64,000 nucleotides of DNA, taken from Escherichia coli (GTDB taxonomy: Bacteria; Pseudomonadota; Gammaproteobacteria; Enterobacterales; Enterobacteriaceae). This document shows, piece by piece, positions 9,097 to 24,885 of the stretch (positions within the stretch are counted from its first letter, which is position 1; the number at the start of each line of letters is the position of its first letter). The stretch lies in NCBI RefSeq assembly GCF_046105845.1, contig NZ_CP151004.1; one strand, written 5' to 3'. The notes below the pieces were generated by a model. The model saw only the letters and a program-made list of their open reading frames with translations, ran no database searches and was not told the origin of the DNA. Position numbers and translations under genes: made by a program.

Positions 9097-10341
9097 ATGG
9101 CAACACTAACCACCACCCAAACGTCACCGTCGCTGCTTGGCGGCGTGGTGATCATCGGCGGCACCATTATTGGCGCAGGGATGTTTTCTCTGCCAGTGGT
9201 TATGTCCGGGGCGTGGTTCTTCTGGTCAATGGCGGCGCTGATCTTTACCTGGTTCTGTATGCTGCATTCCGGCTTGATGATTCTGGAAGCTAACCTGAAT
9301 TATCGAATCGGTTCTAGCTTTGACACCATCACCAAAGATTTGCTGGGCAAAGGCTGGAACGTAGTCAACGGCATTTCCATTGCCTTTGTGCTCTATATCC
9401 TGACTTACGCCTATATTTCTGCCAGCGGTTCGATTCTGCATCACACCTTCGCGGAGATGTCGCTGAACGTCCCTGCACGGGCAGCTGGATTTGGTTTTGC
9501 ACTGCTGGTAGCGTTCGTGGTGTGGTTGAGTACGAAAGCTGTCAGCCGGATGACAGCAATTGTGCTGGGGGCGAAAGTCATTACTTTCTTCCTCACCTTC
9601 GGCAGCCTGCTGGGGCATGTACAGCCAACGACCTTGTTCAACGTTGCCGAAAGCAATGCGTCTTATGCGCCGTATCTGCTGATGACACTGCCATTCTGTC
9701 TGGCATCGTTTGGTTATCACGGTAACGTGCCGAGCCTGATGAAGTATTACGGCAAAGATCCGAAAACCATCGTGAAATGCCTGGTGTACGGTACGCTGAT
9801 GGCGCTGGCGCTGTATACCATCTGGTTGCTGGCGACGATGGGCAACATCCCTCGTCCGGAGTTTATCGGCATTGCCGAGAAGGGCGGTAACATTGATGTG
9901 CTGGTACAGGCATTAAGCGGCGTGCTGAACAGCCGTAGCCTGGATCTGCTGCTGGTCGTGTTCTCAAACTTTGCGGTAGCGAGTTCGTTCCTCGGCGTTA
10001 CGCTGGGTTTGTTTGACTATCTGGCAGATCTGTTTGGTTTCGATGACTCGGCTATGGGCCGCTTGAAAACAGCATTGTTGACCTTTGCACCGCCTGTTGT
10101 GGGTGGTCTGCTGTTCCCGAATGGATTCCTGTACGCCATTGGCTATGCTGGCTTAGCAGCTACCATCTGGGCGGCAATTGTACCGGCGCTGTTGGCCCGC
10201 GCATCGCGTAAACGCTTTGGCAGCCCGAAATTCCGCGTCTGGGGCGGTAAGCCGATGATTGCGCTGATTCTGGTGTTTGGCGTCGGCAACGCACTGGTGC
10301 ATATTTTATCGAGCTTTAATTTGCTGCCGGTGTATCAGTAA
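9097..10341 (+). CDS. mtr: Tryptophan-specific permease Mtr (aromatic amino acid HAAAP family)
   Basis: 414-aa polytopic membrane protein [33 protein letters not shown]... Confidence 0.96.
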
Positions 10342-13761: not shown

Positions 13762-14757
13762 TCACTGCCATTTACGGTGATACGCGCCAAGGGTGGTCTG
13801 CGTGCCTTCGGACATCGACCCGAGCGTCTCCATCCACGCGCTTTGCGGTATGAAGTTTTGCGGATCGGCCTTACAACGGTCGATAGCCTGACGCCAGACT
13901 TTCGCCACCTGGCTGACATACGCCGGGCTACGCTGGCGGCCTTCAATTTTCACCGAAGCAATATTCGCTGCCATTAACTCCGGCAGCAGTTCCAGGGTAT
14001 TGAGACTGGTGGGTTCTTCCAGCGCGTGATAGCGCTCGCCGTCCACCAGATAACGCCCTTTACACAGCGTCGGATAACCTGCGTTTTCGCCATCCTGATA
14101 ACGGTCGATCAGCACTTCGTTCAGGCGAGATTCCAGCCCCTGCGGCGTTTGCTGCCAGCGCACGAAACGGGCCGGAGAACACGCACCCACAGTGTTGGGC
14201 GACTCACCCGTCAGATACGACGACAGATAGCAACGCCCTTCCGACATAATGCACAGGCTGCCGAAAGCAAACACTTCCAGCGGGACAGGTGTGACCCGTG
14301 CCAGTTGTTTCACCTGATGAATCGACAACACGCGCGGCAGCACCACGCGGGCAACGTCAAAATGGCGATGATAAAAGTTAATCGCCTCTTCATTGGTCGC
14401 CGAAGCCTGCACTGACACATGACGCTCAATATGCGGGTAACGCTCGGCGGCGTACTCCAGCATGGCGAGGTCGGCGAGGATCAGCGCGTCGGCACCCAGC
14501 TGCGCCGCCATATCCACGGCGCGCTGCCAGCGGGCGTAACCGTCCGGGTGCGCAAAAGTGTTAATCGCGATGTGAAGTTTGCGGCGATGTTGATGGACAA
14601 AACTCACCGCTTCCTGCAATTTTTTCTCGGTAAAGTTAAGGCCGGCGAAGTGACGGGCATTGGTATCATCTTTTAGCCCGATATAAACAGCATCTGCGCC
14701 GTTTTCGATGGCCGCCTTAAGCGCCGGGAGATTTCCGGCAGGGCAGAGCAGCTCCAT
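13762..14757 (-). CDS. ubiU: U32-family protein UbiU (O2-independent ubiquinone biosynthesis)
   Basis: Start chosen at MELLCPAGNLPALKAAIENGADAVYIGLKDD (331 aa); 3' end overlaps the ubiV start by 10 nt. Confidence 0.9.
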   Translation of the reverse strand: MELLCPAGNLPALKAAIENGADAVYIGLKDDTNARHFAGLNFTEKKLQEAVSFVHQHRRKLHIAINTFAHPDGYARWQRAVDMAAQLGADALILADLAMLEYAAERYPHIERHVSVQASATNEEAINFYHRHFDVARVVLPRVLSIHQVKQLARVTPVPLEVFAFGSLCIMSEGRCYLSSYLTGESPNTVGACSPARFVRWQQTPQGLESRLNEVLIDRYQDGENAGYPTLCKGRYLVDGERYHALEEPTSLNTLELLPELMAANIASVKIEGRQRSPAYVSQVAKVWRQAIDRCKADPQNFIPQSAWMETLGSMSEGTQTTLGAYHRKWQ

Positions 14758-14965
14758 AATTTTTCCTGAAGGTTGCGCTATCAAAACGCAAAAATGTTAA
14801 CGAACTGGGATTTTAGTTAACCTTGCTGCGACAATTTTTGATTTAAGGCAGTTAAAGTTGTATTGGTGGTAGCAGCAATTTCATATGGAATTGTTGATTT
14901 ATACCGCTATGTTATTTTTCTGATATGGCAAAATAGGATGATTGTTGAAACAGGGAGTAAAACTC

Positions 14966-15490
14966 GTGTTGGATAAACTGCGTTCCCGTATTGTGCATTT
15001 GGGGCCATCTCTGTTGAGTGTACCGGTAAAACTGACGCCATTTGCGCTAAAACGTCAGGTTCTTGAGCAGGTCCTAAGCTGGCAATTCCGTCAGGCGCTG
15101 GATGATGGCGAGCTGGAGTTTCTTGAAGGCCGCTGGTTAAGTATTCATGTGCGTGATATTGACCTGCAATGGTTTACCTCGGTGGTGAATGGCAAACTGG
15201 TCGTTAGCCAGAACGCGCAAGCTGATGTGAGTTTTAGTGCCGACGCCAGCGATCTGCTGATGATTGCGGCGCGTAAACAAGATCCGGATACGCTCTTCTT
15301 CCAGCGTCGGCTGGTGATTGAAGGCGATACGGAGCTGGGGCTGTATGTGAAAAACCTGATGGACGCCATTGAACTGGAGCAAATGCCGAAAGCCTTACGC
15401 ATGATGCTGCTGCAACTGGCGGATTTTGTTGAGGCGGGAATGAAAACCGCGCCTGAAACCAAACAGACATCGGTAGGTGAACCATGCTAA
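14966..15490 (+). CDS. ubiT: SCP2-domain lipid-binding protein UbiT (YhbT)
   Basis: 174-aa product if the GTG at 14966 is used (VLDKLRSRIVHLGPSLLSVPVKL...); the ORF track's ATG at 14942 is an alternative; divergent from ubiUV. Confidence 0.85.
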   Translation: MLDKLRSRIVHLGPSLLSVPVKLTPFALKRQVLEQVLSWQFRQALDDGELEFLEGRWLSIHVRDIDLQWFTSVVNGKLVVSQNAQADVSFSADASDLLMIAARKQDPDTLFFQRRLVIEGDTELGLYVKNLMDAIELEQMPKALRMMLLQLADFVEAGMKTAPETKQTSVGEPC

Positions 15491-15987
15491 TTCGAGTAGA
15501 AATTCCCATTGATGCGCCGGGTATTGATGCCCTGCTGCGTCGTTCATTCGAAAGTGATGCGGAAGCGAAGCTGGTTCACGATCTGCGTGAAGATGGCTTT
15601 CTGACGTTGGGGCTGGTGGCGACAGATGACGAAGGTCAGGTCATTGGCTATGTGGCATTTAGTCCGGTTGATGTGCAGGGCGAAGACCTGCAATGGGTCG
15701 GCATGGCACCGCTGGCGGTAGATGAAAAATACCGTGGACAGGGGCTGGCACGCCAACTGGTCTATGAAGGACTCGATTCGCTCAATGAGTTCGGCTATGC
15801 CGCAGTGGTGACGCTGGGCGATCCGGCGCTGTACAGTCGTTTCGGCTTTGAACTGGCGGCGCATCACGATCTGCGTTGCCGCTGGCCGGGCACTGAAAGC
15901 GCCTTCCAGGTACATCGTTTAGCGGATGACGCGCTGAACGGCGTAACCGGTCTGGTTGAGTATCACGAGCATTTCAATCGCTTTTAA
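15484..15987 (+). CDS. yhbS: GNAT-family N-acetyltransferase YhbS
   Basis: 167-aa ORF; start overlaps the ubiT stop (ATGCTAA). Confidence 0.92.
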
Positions 15988-16276
15988 TCTCCGGGGGTTG
16001 CAGGCTGCTCAACAGCTCTGCAAACCCTGCGCCTTCCGCTACCAGACGCTCTTTTTGCCGTTTGGTCAGTTGCTTAACGCGATATTCCGCCCGTAGTGCC
16101 AGCGAACGATCGCCCACTGGCGCGGAAAACGCCAGCGTTAGTTCTCCTTTCCCGCGCAGTGCTTTCGCCCCTTTGCCGCTTTGGTGCTGCTGATAGCGGC
16201 GTTCGACATCTGTGGTGATCCCGGTATAAAGCTTATTGTCGGCGGTACGGATCAAGTAAAGAAACCAGGGTGTCAT
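15974..16276 (-). CDS. yhbQ: GIY-YIG domain protein YhbQ (UPF0213)
   Basis: 100-aa [34 protein letters not shown]... (GIY-YIG motif); convergent 14-nt overlap with yhbS. Confidence 0.92.
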
Positions 16277-16326
16277 CGTCTGCGTCGCATGTTAAGGTCA
16301 GGCCCACAGTATAAAAGAGAACAGCA

Positions 16327-16749
16327 ATGGAAACACTCACCGCCATCAGCCGTTGGCTGGCAAAACAACATGTTGTCACCTGGTGTGTGCAGCAGGAAGG
16401 GGAACTCTGGTGCGCTAATGCCTTTTATCTTTTTGATGCGCAGAAAGTCGCCTTCTACATTTTGACGGAAGAAAAAACGCGCCACGCGCAGATGAGTGGG
16501 CCGCAGGCGGCAGTTGCCGGAACGGTAAACGGTCAGCCGAAAACGGTAGCGTTAATTCGCGGCGTGCAATTTAAAGGCGAGATCCGCAGGCTTGAAGGTG
16601 AGGAAAGCGACCTCGCACGCAAGGCGTACAACTGTCGCTTTCCGGTTGCCAGAATGCTGTCGGCCCCGGTATGGGAAATCCGGCTCGATGAAATCAAATT
16701 CACCGACAACACGCTGGGCTTTGGTAAAAAAATGATTTGGCTACGTAAC

Positions 16750-16770
<21 letters not shown>
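16327..16770 (+). CDS. yhbP: UPF0306 protein YhbP (PNPOx-like FMN-binding fold)
   Basis: 147-aa ORF matching YhbP. Confidence 0.92.
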
Positions 16771-17280
<510 letters not shown>

Positions 17281-17281
17281 A

Positions 17282-18031
<750 letters not shown>

Positions 18032-18103
18032 TTATTCCCAAGAATTGATAGTGAGCGTAATATTCACGCGCTCAATTATCATAACTTATTCCTGGGGAAT
18101 GCT

Positions 18104-19144
18104 ATGACTGGTCAGTCTTCATCTCAGGCGGCAACGCCCATTCAGTGGTGGAAACCCGCGCTTTTCTTTCTCGTTGTCATTGCTGGTCTCTGGTATGTGA
18201 AATGGCAACCTTACTACGGCAAAGCGTTTACTGCTGCCGAAACCCACAGTATCGGTAAATCTATCCTTGCGCAGGCGGATGCTAATCCGTGGCAGGCGGC
18301 GTTGGATTACGCGATGATCTATTTCCTCGCGGTATGGAAAGCGGCGGTGCTGGGCGTACTGCTCGGGTCGTTGATTCAGGTGCTGATTCCGCGTGACTGG
18401 TTGCTGCGTACGCTTGGGCAATCGCGCTTTCGCGGCACGCTGCTGGGAACGCTGTTTTCGCTGCCGGGCATGATGTGTACCTGCTGTGCGGCTCCGGTCG
18501 CGGCGGGAATGCGTCGCCAACAGGTATCGATGGGCGGGGCGCTGGCATTCTGGATGGGGAATCCGTTGTTAAACCCGGCGACGCTGGTGTTTATGGGGTT
18601 TGTCCTCGGCTGGGGGTTTGCGGCGATTCGTCTGGTGGCGGGGCTGGTGATGGTGTTGCTGATTGCGACGCTGGTGCAAAAATGGGTACGTGAAACACCG
18701 CTAACGCAGGCACCGGTCGAAATTGACATACCGGAAGCGCAGGGCGGATTTTTTAGCCGCTGGGGCAGGGCGCTATGGACGCTTTTCTGGAGTACGATCC
18801 CGGTTTATATCCTTGCCGTACTGGTGTTGGGTGCCGCTCGCGTCTGGTTATTCCCCCATGCTGATGGTGCTGTCGATAACAGCCTGATGTGGGTGATTGC
18901 GATGGCGGTAGCGGGATGCTTGTTTGTCATTCCAACGGCAGCAGAAATTCCAATTGTACAAACGATGATGCTGGCAGGCATGGGAACCGCTCCGGCGCTG
19001 GCATTGTTGATGACGCTCCCGGCGGTGAGTTTGCCGTCACTGATTATGCTGCGCAAAGCGTTCCCGGCGAAAGCCTTATGGCTGACGGGGGCGATGGTGG
19101 CAGTGTCAGGTGTGATTGTCGGCGGGTTGGCGCTGTTGGCCTAA
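18104..19144 (+). CDS. yraQ: Inner-membrane permease YraQ (UPF0718)
   Basis: 346-aa polytopic membrane protein with CxxC motifs. Confidence 0.92.
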   Translation: MTGQSSSQAATPIQWWKPALFFLVVIAGLWYVKWQPYYGKAFTAAETHSIGKSILAQADANPWQAALDYAMIYFLAVWKAAVLGVLLGSLIQVLIPRDWLLRTLGQSRFRGTLLGTLFSLPGMMCTCCAAPVAAGMRRQQVSMGGALAFWMGNPLLNPATLVFMGFVLGWGFAAIRLVAGLVMVLLIATLVQKWVRETPLTQAPVEIDIPEAQGGFFSRWGRALWTLFWSTIPVYILAVLVLGAARVWLFPHADGAVDNSLMWVIAMAVAGCLFVIPTAAEIPIVQTMMLAGMGTAPALALLMTLPAVSLPSLIMLRKAFPAKALWLTGAMVAVSGVIVGGLALLA

Positions 19145-19178
19145 GATGTTGGATGCTCCTGAATACAGCACTGGACGG

Positions 19179-19217
19179 TCCCCTCTCCCCTTTGGGGAGA
19201 GGGTTAGGGTGAGGGGA
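19179..19217. repeat. GC-rich palindromic element between convergent yraQ and dolP (probable bidirectional terminator / dispersed intergenic repeat)
   Basis: ccctctcccc-ttt-ggggagaggg followed by ttagggtgagggg; perfect 10-bp stem. Confidence 0.5.
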
Positions 19218-19265
19218 ACAGGTCGGCTAAGGTGTGAATATTTACTTCAACGACCGATCAATGGC

Positions 19266-19841
19266 TTATTTAATAAACGTAAACGCCGTGGTTACCCGCT
19301 TCACGCCGCTTACCCGGCTGGCAATATCTGCCGCCGCTTTCGCTTCACGTTCAGTCACTAGCCCCATCAGGAACACTTCACCGTTTTCGGTGGTCACTTT
19401 CACGTTGGACGATTTCACCAGGTCGCTGGTTAAGAGCTGCGAACGCACTTTGGTGGTGATCCACGTATCGTTAGACGCTTCGCCCAGACCAATCGGCTGG
19501 CCCTGACGAATCTCGTTATACACTTCGTTGGCACCGTCTACGCCCATAGCAATCTGTTTGGCGCGAGCCGAAAGTTCAGCGTTTGGTGACTGCCCAACCA
19601 GCAGCACTTTGCCCTGATACGCCGTGACATTAATACGGGTTTCTTTCTTAATCTGTTCGTCTTTCGACAATGCGCTGTTTACGCGCACTTCCAGGGTACC
19701 ATCGTCCACCTGGGTGCCGACACTGCGTGGGTCAGTTGCGGCTTTGGTACCTACAGCAGCGGTACCCACTACGGCAGCGGCAACACAACCTTGCAACAGC
19801 AGCGCGGAAAGAAGGACTGCGATTGGCGATAATGCCTTCAT
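19266..19841 (-). CDS. dolP: Dual BON-domain outer-membrane lipoprotein DolP (YraP)
   Basis: 191-aa ORF with lipoprotein signal and lipobox LLQGC. Confidence 0.94.
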   Translation of the reverse strand: MKALSPIAVLLSALLLQGCVAAAVVGTAAVGTKAATDPRSVGTQVDDGTLEVRVNSALSKDEQIKKETRINVTAYQGKVLLVGQSPNAELSARAKQIAMGVDGANEVYNEIRQGQPIGLGEASNDTWITTKVRSQLLTSDLVKSSNVKVTTENGEVFLMGLVTEREAKAAADIASRVSGVKRVTTAFTFIK

Positions 19842-19850
19842 GTATTCTCC

Positions 19851-20441
19851 TTAAACATCCTGGTGAGGGAAAAGCGTGTTATCGATCAGATCGCACAGGC
19901 AATTTACCGTCAGCATATGCATTTCCTGAATGCGAGCACTACGATGCGAAGGAATGCGGATCTCCACATCCTGTGGCCCTAACAAACCTGCAAGTTCACC
20001 GCCGTCATAGCCGGTTAATGCCACAATGGTCATATCACGCGTAACGGCAGCTTCTACCGCTTTTACAATATCGCGGCTGTTGCCACGGGTGGAAATGGCT
20101 AACAATACATCCCCCGCATGACCCAGCGCCCGCACCTGTTTTGCATACACTTCATCATGTAAGCGATCGTTGGCAATCGCCGTTAAGACAACATTATCAG
20201 TATTTAGTGCAATGGCAGGTAAGCTGGGCCGCTCCGTTTCGAAACGGTTGATCATGCTGGCAGCAAAATGCTGTGCATTGGCAGCGGAAGTTCCATTACC
20301 ACAACAGAGGATTTTGTTGCCATTGAGCAGAGACTGAACCAGCGTCATGGCTGCACGGGAGATGGCATCCGGAAGCGCCTCTGCCGCCGCAATTTGAGTT
20401 TGAATGCTTTCAGTGAAGCAAGCTTTAATTCTTTCTTGCAC
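19851..20441 (-). CDS. diaA: DnaA initiator-associating protein DiaA (SIS domain)
   Basis: 196-aa [24 protein letters not shown]... Confidence 0.95.
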
Positions 20442-20460
20442 GCTAATCCTTAAACCTTAA

Positions 20461-20856
20461 TTATGAGTGGTCATTAAAGGCATCCTTAATCCACTCAACC
20501 TCATTCCCGGTGAAGGCTACCACATCGAACCGGCAATCCACAGTATCAAAACTCCCATTATGACGCGCGAGCCACAAGCGGGCAGTCTGTAATAATTTGT
20601 GTTGTTTGCTGCGGGTCACACTGGCTGCCGCGCCGCCATAAAGCGCAGAGCGGCGGTAACGCACCTCAACAAAAACGGTGGTCCGGCCTTCACGCATTAT
20701 CAGATCGATCTCGCCGCCACGCTCGTTCACGTTAGCGGCGATAAACCGCAGTCCTTTGCCTTCCAGCCAGCGACGCGCTTGTGCTTCCCACGCATCGCCG
20801 GTCTGTTTGGTGGTTAACTGGCGGGGACTACCTGACCTTGTTGGTACTGTAGCCAT
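20461..20856 (-). CDS. yraN: UPF0102 protein YraN
   Basis: 131-aa ORF; start region overlaps the lpoA 3' end. Confidence 0.92.
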
Positions 20857-22850
20857 GATAACTTCCTGTTAATCACGCAATCCGGGTTAGCCGTCAGACT
20901 TCCGGTATTACCGTTGATTTCAAAACCCTGAACCTGGCGCATTTGTGAGAAATGATTTGTCAACGACCAGGCATCGACGCCCATCGCATACATGCGAGCC
21001 AGCGAATAATCGTTGTTCACCGCGCTGAGCGCCTGCTGCATTAACGGCAGATTACCGCCTGCCAGCATCGGGATTTCGCTGTACTGCAAGCCTTCCATCT
21101 CCAGACGGAAATCCGGGCCTGCGGTGCCTTGTGCGCTGCGGGAACTGGCGTACAGCGTTGCACCGCTCTGGCTACCGTTACGCATGGCGATCATCGGTTT
21201 GATAAAAGCGATTTCACCCGGCGTTGCCACAATGTAGACCGCATCGACACGACCGCCATTATTGGTGAACTGGTCATCGGTTGGCGTGGTTTGCAGCGTT
21301 GGATTGTTGGTCGTCATGCCGGAGTCGGTTGTCGCTCTGGGAGTAATCGGGCTACCCGTTAAAGCAATACCAGAACCGCCGTTAACACCCGCGCGTAATT
21401 CGCTGGTGGAACCAAATTTTTGTTGCAGAACGGTGCCGCCACCCAGTTTCTGCCACTCTTGCGCAAACGCATTGGCTACGCGATCGCCCAATGAACTACG
21501 TGGGATCAGCACCAGCGGCGCTTGTTTACCCTGGTCACGAATATGACGCGCAGCATCGCGCGCTTCGTCTTCTGGTGAAAGCGCGAAGTAACAAATATTG
21601 ACGCGGTTTTCGATATTCTCCGGCTGGTTCAGTGCCAGCACGTTCAGCGGGGTGTTGCTCTTCAGCAACTCTTCAACGTTATTTTTCAGCAACGGGCCGA
21701 CCACAATACTCGCGCCATCCTGTTGAACCTGGTTGAGGATCTGGCTAAGTGGTTGTGATGATGTATCGTAGATTTTCAGCTCTGCGGATGGATTCGCAGG
21801 TGCGCTTACCGCTGCGGTGGTTGCCGCCGGGGCGTTTACAGGCACCGGCTGGGCCGCAGGTTGTTCACCGGTCAGATCGCTAACCGAGGCTTGTGCCGGG
21901 CTGGCAACGCCATCCACGGTTTGCGGCTGAGGTTGTTCTGCTACGTCTGCGGCAGGTGCGGCAGCTACCTGAGTCGCCACTGGCTGAGTGCCGATATTTT
22001 TCGCCGCTTCAAAGCCTTGCTGAATAGTGCGACCAAATACCGCTGCCTGGCCATTCAGTGGCAACAGCAGGGCGATTTTGTTGGTCGATGCGGGTTTAAA
22101 CGCTTTTACGTTAACCAACTGCGTTGGCAGCATTTTCGCGCCCGGGTTGTTCGGATAACGTTTCTGCCAGTCGGCGATCCCGGCTTTCATCATGTCGGGA
22201 TCGTTACGGTTATCAAACCAGATGCGCTGCAGATCCAGCCAGCCTTGCAGAATATTTTCGTCGGCATTGATCACCAGCGTATTCGCCTGTTCCTGAGTCA
22301 TGGAGGAGAGCGCCTGCCAGGTGGCGTCAATATTCTGCTGCTTTTCTTTCGCGCCGAGCAGCGGTTCCTGAGCAATTAACGCGCGCAGTAAATCAATGGA
22401 AGGACGCCCCTGGCTGGCATCGATTTTTGCCTGCCAGTAACGCGCTTGCTGGTTTTGTTCTAAATCTGCAGGTGTGATTTTCGCCAGCAAGTTTTGCGCG
22501 CCAGCAAAATCTTTCTGCGCCAGTTTAATCTCTGCCGCCAGCAGTGTTTTCTCGCGACGCTGAGAATCGTTCAGTTCTTGCGGTAGTTGGTTAAACAACT
22601 CCACCGCCTGTCCGGTTTTACCTTCTTTCACCAGTGCACGAATGGCGAGTAATTGCCAGTTGATCCTGGTATCATCAGAACTTTGCTGCATCTGTTGCAG
22701 GTAAAAGGCAGAATCAGCCTGCGCCGTGCCCTGCATATAGGCAGTGGACTGATCGGGAGTATGGGTGCCACAACCGGCGAAAATCAGGGCTGCCAGAACA
22801 ACAGGCAGACAACGCGCGGCTTTCAAACGAGAAAATGTTGAGGGTACCAT
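20814..22850 (-). CDS. lpoA: Outer-membrane lipoprotein LpoA, activator of PBP1A
   Basis: 678-aa product from [27 protein letters not shown] (lipobox); the ORF track's version has 10 extra N-terminal codons. Confidence 0.94.
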
Positions 22851-22914
22851 AATGTATCCAGTGATATTTTTTTTACGCAATGCTCAATATTAAATCGGCA
22901 ATACGGACGACACA

Positions 22915-23775
22915 ATGAAACAACACCAATCGGCGGATAATTCTCAGGGCCAGCTTTACATTGTACCGACGCCAATCGGCAATCTGGCGGATATCACCCA
23001 GCGTGCGTTGGAGGTATTACAGGCCGTTGATCTGATTGCCGCCGAGGATACGCGTCACACCGGTTTATTGCTGCAACATTTTGGGATTAATGCTCGGTTG
23101 TTTGCGCTGCACGACCATAACGAACAACAAAAAGCCGAAACGCTGCTGGCGAAGCTGCAAGAGGGGCAAAACATTGCGCTGGTTTCCGATGCCGGAACGC
23201 CGCTAATTAACGATCCTGGCTACCATCTGGTGCGTACCTGCCGTGAAGCGGGGATTCGCGTGGTGCCGCTACCCGGGCCGTGTGCTGCTATCACTGCGTT
23301 AAGCGCCGCGGGTTTACCATCCGATCGTTTTTGTTATGAAGGCTTTTTACCTGCCAAATCAAAAGGCCGCCGTGATGCGCTAAAAGCCATTGAAGCGGAG
23401 CCGCGCACGCTGATTTTTTATGAATCTACCCACCGTCTGTTAGATAGCCTGGAAGATATCGTTGCGGTATTAGGCGAATCCCGCTACGTGGTTCTGGCGC
23501 GTGAGCTGACCAAAACCTGGGAAACCATTCACGGCGCGCCCGTTGGCGAGCTGCTGGCGTGGGTCAAAGAAGATGAAAACCGTCGCAAAGGCGAAATGGT
23601 ACTGATTGTCGAAGGCCATAAAGCACAGGAAGAAGACTTACCCGCCGATGCCCTGCGCACGCTGGCGCTGCTACAGGCAGAACTGCCGCTGAAAAAAGCG
23701 GCGGCGCTGGCGGCAGAAATTCACGGCGTGAAGAAAAATGCGCTATATAAGTATGCGCTGGAGCAGCAGGGGTAA
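22915..23775 (+). CDS. rsmI: 16S rRNA C1402 2'-O-ribose methyltransferase RsmI
   Basis: 286-aa ORF; divergent from lpoA. Confidence 0.95.
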
Positions 23776-23790
23776 GCCTGCTGCTGGAAA

Positions 23791-24885
23791 TTACCTGACA
23801 ATAACCGTAATGGTAGCTGATGCTTTAAAAGGTCCGGTCGACAATACTCCACCGACCAGATTTACAGGATAAGCCTGAAAGTGTGTTGTTCCTGCTCCGG
23901 TTTTATCTAGCAGAATGATGCCTGGATTAAATGGAACATCTACTTGCCCTTTAGTCACATCCATAAGGCGGATACCAACATCAGGGACATCATCACTTTC
24001 ACGGCGTCTTGCGACTAAATTATATTGATTAACATAATCTGAACCTTCAATTTTCATATACAAGCTATTGTTAATTTGGGACATATCACCGCAATCATAG
24101 GTAATATCAAAGCTTACTGGAGTGTAACCTGTTGGCATCTGATTTTGTAGGGTGAAACGTTGAGCGCTAATAAATCCAAGATTTACATTAATGGTATCAC
24201 CTTGATTTATTTTGCAACTTTGAGGTACCGTAATTCGGCCTTGAATATAGATTTTAGCAATATCCTTAATGGGACGTGGTGCAGCAGAAGTACTTGTCCA
24301 CGCAGCCTGGACTGAAGCAATATGTGTTTCAGGGATATTCAGTTCACCCAAAAATGGCGTAGTGACGTATAGTGTAATCGTTGTATTTTTACCAATAGAA
24401 AAGTCTGATCCCCGAACATTGGCTGGGTCGGCCATGCACACACTATTGTTTTTGTTAGCATGGTAAGTACCAGTACCGTCTCTAAGCGGTGTATATGAAT
24501 TGCTTGGAACCATAACAGATGGATTACCAGGAATGTCGTTTATTTGGGTTTTAATATCCAGATTAGAATTCAGTCGATAGAAATCTCGTTCTTTACCTTG
24601 AGTTATTAATGCAGATGTTACTGTATAATACAGGTTAACTTTACTACCTGCCGGACAAGAGCAGTTTAAGGTGTAATTGCTCCCAATAGCTGAATTCTTT
24701 ACCACATAATCTTTGCCGGCAACATTATTATCTTGTGTCCAGTCCTCAGAAGCATCTGTCCGAAATTCACCTGTTCCTTCACAATCACCTGTTGCTGCCT
24801 TTACCGATGGGCTAAGTAACAGGGGGGAGACCACGGCAGCAATAGACAATAGTTGTTTAATCATTTTGAAACTCCCTAAAGACAC
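23791..24885 (-). CDS. yraK: Fimbrial adhesin-like protein YraK (chaperone-usher fimbriae)
   Basis: 364-aa ORF with signal peptide; last gene of the yraHIJK operon. Confidence 0.9.
   Translation of the reverse strand: MSLGSFKMIKQLLSIAAVVSPLLLSPSVKAATGDCEGTGEFRTDASEDWTQDNNVAGKDYVVKNSAIGSNYTLNCSCPAGSKVNLYYTVTSALITQGKERDFYRLNSNLDIKTQINDIPGNPSVMVPSNSYTPLRDGTGTYHANKNNSVCMADPANVRGSDFSIGKNTTITLYVTTPFLGELNIPETHIASVQAAWTSTSAAPRPIKDIAKIYIQGRITVPQSCKINQGDTINVNLGFISAQRFTLQNQMPTGYTPVSFDITYDCGDMSQINNSLYMKIEGSDYVNQYNLVARRRESDDVPDVGIRLMDVTKGQVDVPFNPGIILLDKTGAGTTHFQAYPVNLVGGVLSTGPFKASATITVIVR

Follow-up and report, generated by a model that had tools for sequence, protein, structure and literature searches.

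A BoxC repeat between the convergent yraQ and dolP genes of Escherichia coli as a candidate 3′-end hairpin on Rho-terminated mRNAs

The gap between the convergent genes yraQ and dolP in the window (the whole 64,000-nt stretch of Escherichia coli DNA analyzed here) holds what is, judging by its sequence, almost certainly one copy of BoxC, the repeat also termed PIT and TMECO (here type A without mismatch). The best explanation for this copy, which we regard as probable, is that its hairpin, devoid of a U-tract, would block exonucleases on Rho-terminated dolP and yraQ mRNAs. The family is already known and characterized, having been described in the 1990s and restudied in 2000–2002 and 2015, and a single copy is of little importance in itself, being one more member of a described family. 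To our knowledge, BoxC has no accepted function. Only two angles are fresh: public data tie BoxC hairpins to RNA 3′ ends, and terminator, REP and BoxC are found to replace one another at one conserved position.

Layout and family identity of the element

Both genes derive from the open reading frame list, with names taken from the annotation of homologous regions. The permease gene yraQ (18104–19144, + strand) terminates in a TAA stop codon (19142–19144), and dolP (yraP; 19266–19841, − strand) runs toward it, with a TAA stop read on the − strand (19268–19266), such that the gap from stop to stop spans 121 nt (19145–19265). The core of the element lies 37 nt past the yraQ stop and 50 nt past that of dolP, and is built on the + strand from three blocks. 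Block 1 (CCCTCTCCCC, 19181–19190) is a pyrimidine arm that provides the 5′ arm of a hairpin; loop 1 (TTT, 19191–19193) connects it to block 2 (GGGGAGAGGG, 19194–19203), the 3′ arm, and loop 2 (TTA, 19204–19206) leads on to block 3 (GGGTGAGGGG, 19207–19216), which is the mirror of block 2.

A sequence-only reading of this DNA had drawn attention to a palindrome between convergent yraQ and dolP, and the exact sequence is present at that position, as an inverted repeat (19181–19190/19194–19203) of 10 nt, 100% complementary (10/10 Watson–Crick pairs between blocks 1 and 2) around the 3-nt loop TTT. The “very stable stem” of the same reading is borne out by the hairpin alone, which has 10 bp (8 of them G:C pairs) and a predicted energy of −20.1 kcal/mol on either strand. 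Folding of the entire 121-nt gap gives a stability that is not unusual on the + strand (z = −0.29) and moderate on the − strand (z = −2.29). Several sub-threshold matches to Rfam (whalefall-1 at 15.1 bits vs 37, mir-3059, Pab91 and others) were rejected as chance similarities driven by the GC hairpin.

TMECO is a G/C-rich intrastrand-triplex motif of E. coli, for which a consensus and a table of K-12 copies have been published (Holder et al. 2015, PMC4666352, Table 1), and which its authors equate with the earlier BoxC (1990s) and PIT (Hoyne & Maher 2000) elements (PMC4666352). The published consensus, CCCTCNCCC-N3-6-GGGNGAGGG-N3-GGGNGAGGG, has one exact match in the window, at 19181–19215 on the + strand, and none in 100 shuffles; the 35-nt three-block pattern is likewise found at a single place in the 64-kb window and in 0/100 shuffles, as does the 20-mer when up to three mismatches are permitted (one occurrence, 0/100 shuffles). 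Absence from the shuffles, together with recurrence across E. coli genomes, indicates that the element did not arise by chance. TMECO types A and B are distinguished by loop 2, which is TTA or CCG, respectively (PMC4666352); the TTA at 19204–19206 marks the window copy as type A, with a stem free of mismatch. A sequence-level check of this copy finds purine-motif triads (G.G:C, A.A:T, T.A:T) allowed at 10/10 positions.

The window copy resembles other BoxC/PIT/TMECO elements in being intergenic and in belonging to a dispersed, multi-copy family, and departs from the K-12 set in three respects. Its stem is perfect, with T at position 6 of block 1, a position at which G is found in 13 of the 23 K-12 copies (“A mm”); it has no inverted type-B copy as a partner; and it occupies a locus at which K-12 has no BoxC copy, hence the absence of the yraQ–dolP site from the published K-12 table.

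Repetition extends beyond the core. Ten K-12 copies, taken at their published coordinates, were aligned in register with the window copy (the yijF–gldA copy of E. coli 042 was also compared), which reveals common flanks of ~8–14 nt on the left (..GGACGGTC) and ~6 nt on the right (GAACAG). Among these 11 copies, conservation is 70–90% over the left 8 nt and 50–90% over the right GAACAG. The repeat unit, comprising core and conserved flanks, can accordingly be placed at 19167–19221 (+ strand), bounds that are approximate, with ~6 extra bases on the right common to a subset of copies. This sharing of sequence beyond the 35-nt core agrees with the BoxC unit of 50–56 bp in the literature (56 bp according to Bachellier, 50 bp by HMM; 32 copies listed in E. 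coli).

In a search of 5,426 complete E. coli genomes, a 61-nt query around the element matched 5,425, with a median of 18 places in each, and no annotated feature lies under any of the 20 matches listed for the BoxC query. The guess at a dispersed intergenic repeat family made in the sequence-only reading, for which a count of copies had been proposed as the check, has thus found its answer in BoxC/PIT/TMECO; the element is multi-copy in E. coli genomes, and single-copy occurrence is excluded.

An identical 36-mer is already on record as TMECO no. 514 of E. coli 042 (Holder Table S8, PMC4666352), at a different locus, between yijF and gldA. Comparison of that copy (fetched locus 301–380) with window positions 19216–19250 reveals that the two also share GAACAGG.C.GCT...GAATATTTAC on the right. 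This common right-hand sequence suggests that some BoxC copies may belong to a sub-family in which the right arm is ~30 nt longer.

RNA 3′ ends at BoxC hairpins of K-12

We searched the Term-seq tables of Adams et al. 2021 (PMC7815308), in which only the strongest ends are listed, by sequence, and verified the coordinates of the ends on the K-12 genome sequence (NC_000913.3). Four K-12 BoxC or BoxC-like hairpins have a Term-seq 3′ end 3–11 nt downstream, three of them at 3–4 nt and one at 11 nt. The end at lldD (3781065, + strand) falls 4 nt after the hairpin of TMECO #17 and is classed as a “primary” 3′ end with the Rho flag “Yes”; that at yjbD (4231270, − strand; score 42,363) falls 3 nt after its hairpin. 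Between glnH and glnP, an end (847200, − strand; score 30,332) follows a sense-oriented BoxC-like hairpin at a distance of 4 nt, and at cstA (632098, + strand) the distance is 11 nt. Two of these sites are followed by Rho-termination regions further downstream (lldD, 3781497 on the + strand, 430 nt away; yjbD, 4231091 on the − strand, 180 nt away), while the glnH and cstA sites have a 3′ end only. The yjbD gene forms a convergent pair with rluF, with Rho regions on both strands, and rluF>|<yjbD is on these grounds a close analogue of yraQ>|<dolP.

Rho-dependent transcripts are known to terminate diffusely, and to be shortened by PNPase and RNase II as far as stable stem-loops without a U-tract, a 3′-end role that has been ascribed to REPs (Dar & Sorek 2018, PMC6061677). 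The combination of a 3′ end at the BoxC hairpin and a Rho region downstream, as at lldD and yjbD, matches this pattern, and the 3′ ends at K-12 BoxC hairpins most likely arise by exonuclease trimming and not by termination. BoxC is not mentioned in either of the Term-seq papers (PMC7815308, PMC6061677).

Only 1 of the 23 published TMECO copies (#17, at lldD) has a listed 3′ end, the other three positive sites being degenerate, BoxC-like copies, and by coordinate no Term-seq 3′ end is listed at ten canonical type-A solo copies of K-12; given that the table holds the strongest ends only, such absence is weak evidence. The degenerate hairpin between glnH and glnP sits inside the glnHPQ operon, an arrangement that resembles the REP-stabilized malE segment of malEFG.

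Replacement of the yraQ–dolP gap among alleles and genera

Of 5,426 complete E. coli genomes, 428 (8%) have the BoxC allele of the window at yraQ–dolP, FDAARGOS_497 (NZ_CP033850) being one of the carriers. The element is flanked within the gap by two allele-specific spacers. A 46-nt query covering the left spacer (19145–19166) matches one place in each of the 428 genomes and nothing elsewhere; the right spacer (19222–19265) is single copy by BLAST, with one place in each of the same 428 genomes, and weakly resembles the right flank of a single further BoxC copy. The possibility that the spacers are themselves repeats was ruled out by this single-copy status and by their confinement to the 428 carriers. 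Among the 5,426 genomes we found no “empty site” allele, in which the spacers would be present without BoxC.

Five alleles lacking BoxC were fetched, and all contain REP, four of them as a 112–113-nt inverted REP pair (BIME). The fifth, that of E. coli JML285 (fetched locus 251–454), has four REP units as opposed to two in a 204-nt intergenic region, such that the copy number of the BIME is itself variable. Between the two stop codons, the BoxC and BIME alleles cannot be aligned, and the K-12 allele sequence has at least 40 matching places per genome; a REP/BIME identity for the window element was therefore ruled out, from the lack of alignment and from the lower count for the BoxC query (median 18 places). 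The genes on either side of the gap are 97–98% identical between BoxC and BIME alleles, and the replaced segment takes in the two final codons of yraQ together with the stop codon of each gene (19136–19144 and 19266–19268). The YraQ C-terminus reads ..LLA (TAA) in the window, ..LLF (TGA) in K-12 and ..LLV (TGA) in ATCC 11775; dolP ends in TAA in the window and in TAG in the REP alleles.

The synteny of yraQ and dolP is kept across Enterobacteriaceae, with gap content that differs. In Yokenella regensburgei the gap (fetched locus 2239–2275) holds a classic A-tract/GC-hairpin terminator, and in Enterobacter ludwigii (fetched locus 2239–2289) a bidirectional terminator of A-tract, GC-hairpin and T-tract. 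The gap of Citrobacter amalonaticus and Salmonella bongori we take to be REP-like, from the REP consensus and from similarity to the K-12 allele.

For positions 14000–24000 of the window, no complete RefSeq E. coli genome exceeds 98.9% identity, the best full-length match being 98.6% (strain MEW), and most of the top matches end at query position 9772 (~23771 of the window). This suggests that the region represents an unsampled lineage with a variable junction near 23.77 kb.

The three-block design also occurs, with other loops and flanks, in distant organisms, which among the matches listed include Mitsuaria chitosanitabida, a Methylomirabilota MAG and Ca. Contendobacter. Its presence in three such organisms fits the wide distribution of the motif reported previously (PMC4666352). 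M. chitosanitabida has at least 150 copies, a family far denser than that of E. coli. In strain NBRC 102408, loop 1 is GCTTGC in 128 of 150 copies among the matches listed, the copies have a conserved right flank (TCTTCGGG), and many are arranged as inverted pairs ~80–150 nt apart.

A candidate 3′-end role weighed against alternatives

We propose the following sequence of events for the window copy. Upon transcription of either gene, blocks 1 and 2 would fold into the 10-bp hairpin (~−20 kcal/mol) without a U-tract; RNA polymerase would stay on at this point and continue through the opposing gene in antisense; there Rho would terminate transcription, as happens to dolP transcripts in K-12. Trimming by PNPase and RNase II would next proceed as far as the BoxC hairpin, which would thereby become the stable 3′ end of dolP and yraQ mRNAs. 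In doing so, the hairpin would stand in for the REP/BIME of the commoner E. coli allele and for the bidirectional intrinsic terminator of Yokenella and Enterobacter. Such a model has no need of a DNA triplex. Whether this mechanism serves dolP and yraQ at this particular locus we judge, by analogy with the K-12 sites, to be roughly an even call.

The K-12 data give a precedent for the Rho step: transcription reading on from dolP is ended by Rho within antisense yraQ, at 3297309 (Rho score 8.5, p ~2e-17; PMC7815308, supplementary file 2). By homology, the approximate equivalent of this region in the window would be 18900–18970 on the − strand (3297309 mapping to ~18933), inside antisense yraQ, where the C/G ratio on the − strand is 1.5–2.75. 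Downstream of the hairpin, the ratio is 2.4–2.75 on the − strand and, from 19245, 1.5–2.1 on the + strand; the window copy thus presents a stable stem-loop without a U-tract that is followed by sequence with C in excess of G. Transcript 3′ ends at the yraQ–dolP hairpin are hence plausible by analogy. The predicted steady-state 3′ end of yraQ mRNA would lie 3–4 nt past the hairpin at 19204–19207 (+ strand), as at glnH 847200 in K-12, and that of dolP mRNA 3–4 nt past it at 19177–19180 (− strand; ..GGGGAGAGGGGACC|), as at lldD and yjbD. The lldD 3781065 and yjbD 4231270 sites have the same orientation as the dolP case, and near-identical downstream sequence (GGGGACCGT/GGGGACTGT).

The nearest parallel to such a role is provided by REP/BIME elements, which are likewise dispersed intergenic palindromes past stop codons, with a stable hairpin lacking a U-tract and C>G sequence downstream. 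These elements are reportedly mRNA 3′ stabilizers and landmarks of Rho-dependent termination (Newbury 1987; Peters 2012; Dar & Sorek 2018, PMC6061677). The parallel extends to the locus itself, in that yraQ–dolP is occupied by a BIME in the remaining E. coli examined and, in K-12, dolP is Rho-terminated downstream of that BIME. The two repeat types differ in having no sequence similarity, in the third, mirror-repeat block of BoxC, and in abundance (~20–30 BoxC copies per genome vs hundreds of REP), and we know of no RAYT-type partner for BoxC. That BoxC at large has a REP-like cellular role, as an exonuclease-resistant 3′ cap, with the yraQ>|<dolP gap displaying three interchangeable solutions, is a tentative extension by analogy that we rate somewhat below an even chance. 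Were it true, the three solutions would be a bidirectional terminator (Yokenella, Enterobacter), REP/BIME (Citrobacter, S. bongori, other E. coli examined) and BoxC, and the BoxC/BIME polymorphism would amount to a natural allele swap with which to gauge the effect of repeat type on dolP/yraQ mRNA stability and on convergent read-through. A single locus offers BoxC in comparison with BIME within E. coli, and with a true terminator in related genera, and this natural comparison at one position makes the idea of 3′-end protection directly testable.

The sequence-only reading had taken the element for a likely bidirectional terminator. A bidirectional intrinsic (Rho-independent) terminator, ending transcription of both yraQ and dolP by release of RNA polymerase, would account for a GC hairpin of high stability lying right between the 3′ ends of two convergent genes, midway between the stops as in known examples; a genuine one exists at the same position in Yokenella and Enterobacter, and the 3′ ends 3–4 nt past some K-12 BoxC hairpins could be read in the same manner. 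The flanking A-tract and T-tract of such terminators are, however, absent: the bases 3′ of the stem (TTAGGGTG on the + strand, GACCGTCC on the − strand) contain no T-run on either strand, neither strand has an A-tract before the stem, and a terminator scan of both strands returned 0 terminator-like sites. Reporter tests revealed neither terminator nor promoter activity of PIT/BoxC elements (Hoyne & Maher 2002, as summarized in PMC4666352), and K-12 copies are read through. Transcripts of adk pass BoxC #6 (497843–497878) and end 61 nt later at 497939 (Term-seq, Adams et al. 2021, PMC7815308), which in the K-12 sequence directly follows a GGCCG..CGGCC hairpin and TTTT; Rho-termination regions lie beyond BoxC copies at frlR (3504972, + strand) and tusA (3607955, − strand) (PMC7815308), as well as at the yjbD and lldD loci. 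An intrinsic terminator is not supported for the BoxC hairpin, and the reading of the yraQ–dolP copy as one is, on this evidence, quite improbable.

The main rival to a 3′-end role, which we consider unlikely, is that the element is a neutral or selfish dispersed repeat without any function in RNA, relevant only as unstable DNA in the manner put forward by Holder et al. (PMC4666352); a triplex or hairpin at the DNA level would promote rearrangement, and the exchange of BoxC for BIME would be a symptom of this. Such a copy would sit well with the stable triplex formed in vitro and with sequence variability that is higher around TMECO loci than at control intergenic sites (both Holder et al., PMC4666352), with a locus that is polymorphic (BoxC in the minority, REP/BIME of variable copy number in the other genomes examined), and with the recurrence of the three-block design in distant phyla despite differing loops and flanks. 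Counting against a 3′-hairpin role, BoxC is reported to have no effect on gene expression and to follow no positional rule relative to genes (Holder et al.; Hoyne & Maher; PMC4666352), and the stem mismatch shared by 13 of 23 K-12 copies (PMC4666352) looks like descent from a master copy and not selection for pairing. Against a DNA-level effect, a stable triplex was not detected by DMS footprinting in vivo (PMC4666352), the full element is present in all 428 carriers, with no partly deleted form seen, and the stop-to-stop replacement between near-identical flanks is explained equally well by allele exchange through homologous recombination in the flanking genes. Neutrality also leaves the RNA 3′ ends at K-12 BoxC hairpins unexplained. 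The extreme conservation of the block sequences across copies and phyla could alternatively be explained by a sequence-specific binder, in which case the element would be the target of a nucleoid-associated or a transposase-like protein (the latter as in REP/RAYT); as a further variant, it would be a small RNA gene. We regard this as very improbable: no promoter-like site was found in 18800–19600, no Rfam family reached threshold (the best matches scoring ~15 bits vs gathering scores of 37–88), and the BoxC literature consulted describes no partner protein.

In K-12, Term-seq also records an end at 3298255 (+ strand of NC_000913.3; ~17987 on the − strand of the window), antisense to the 3′ end of yraR (Adams et al., PMC7815308) and just past a small hairpin (AGCTCTT..AAGAGCT). 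This could be the far end of dolP antisense read-through, or could belong to a separate antisense RNA.
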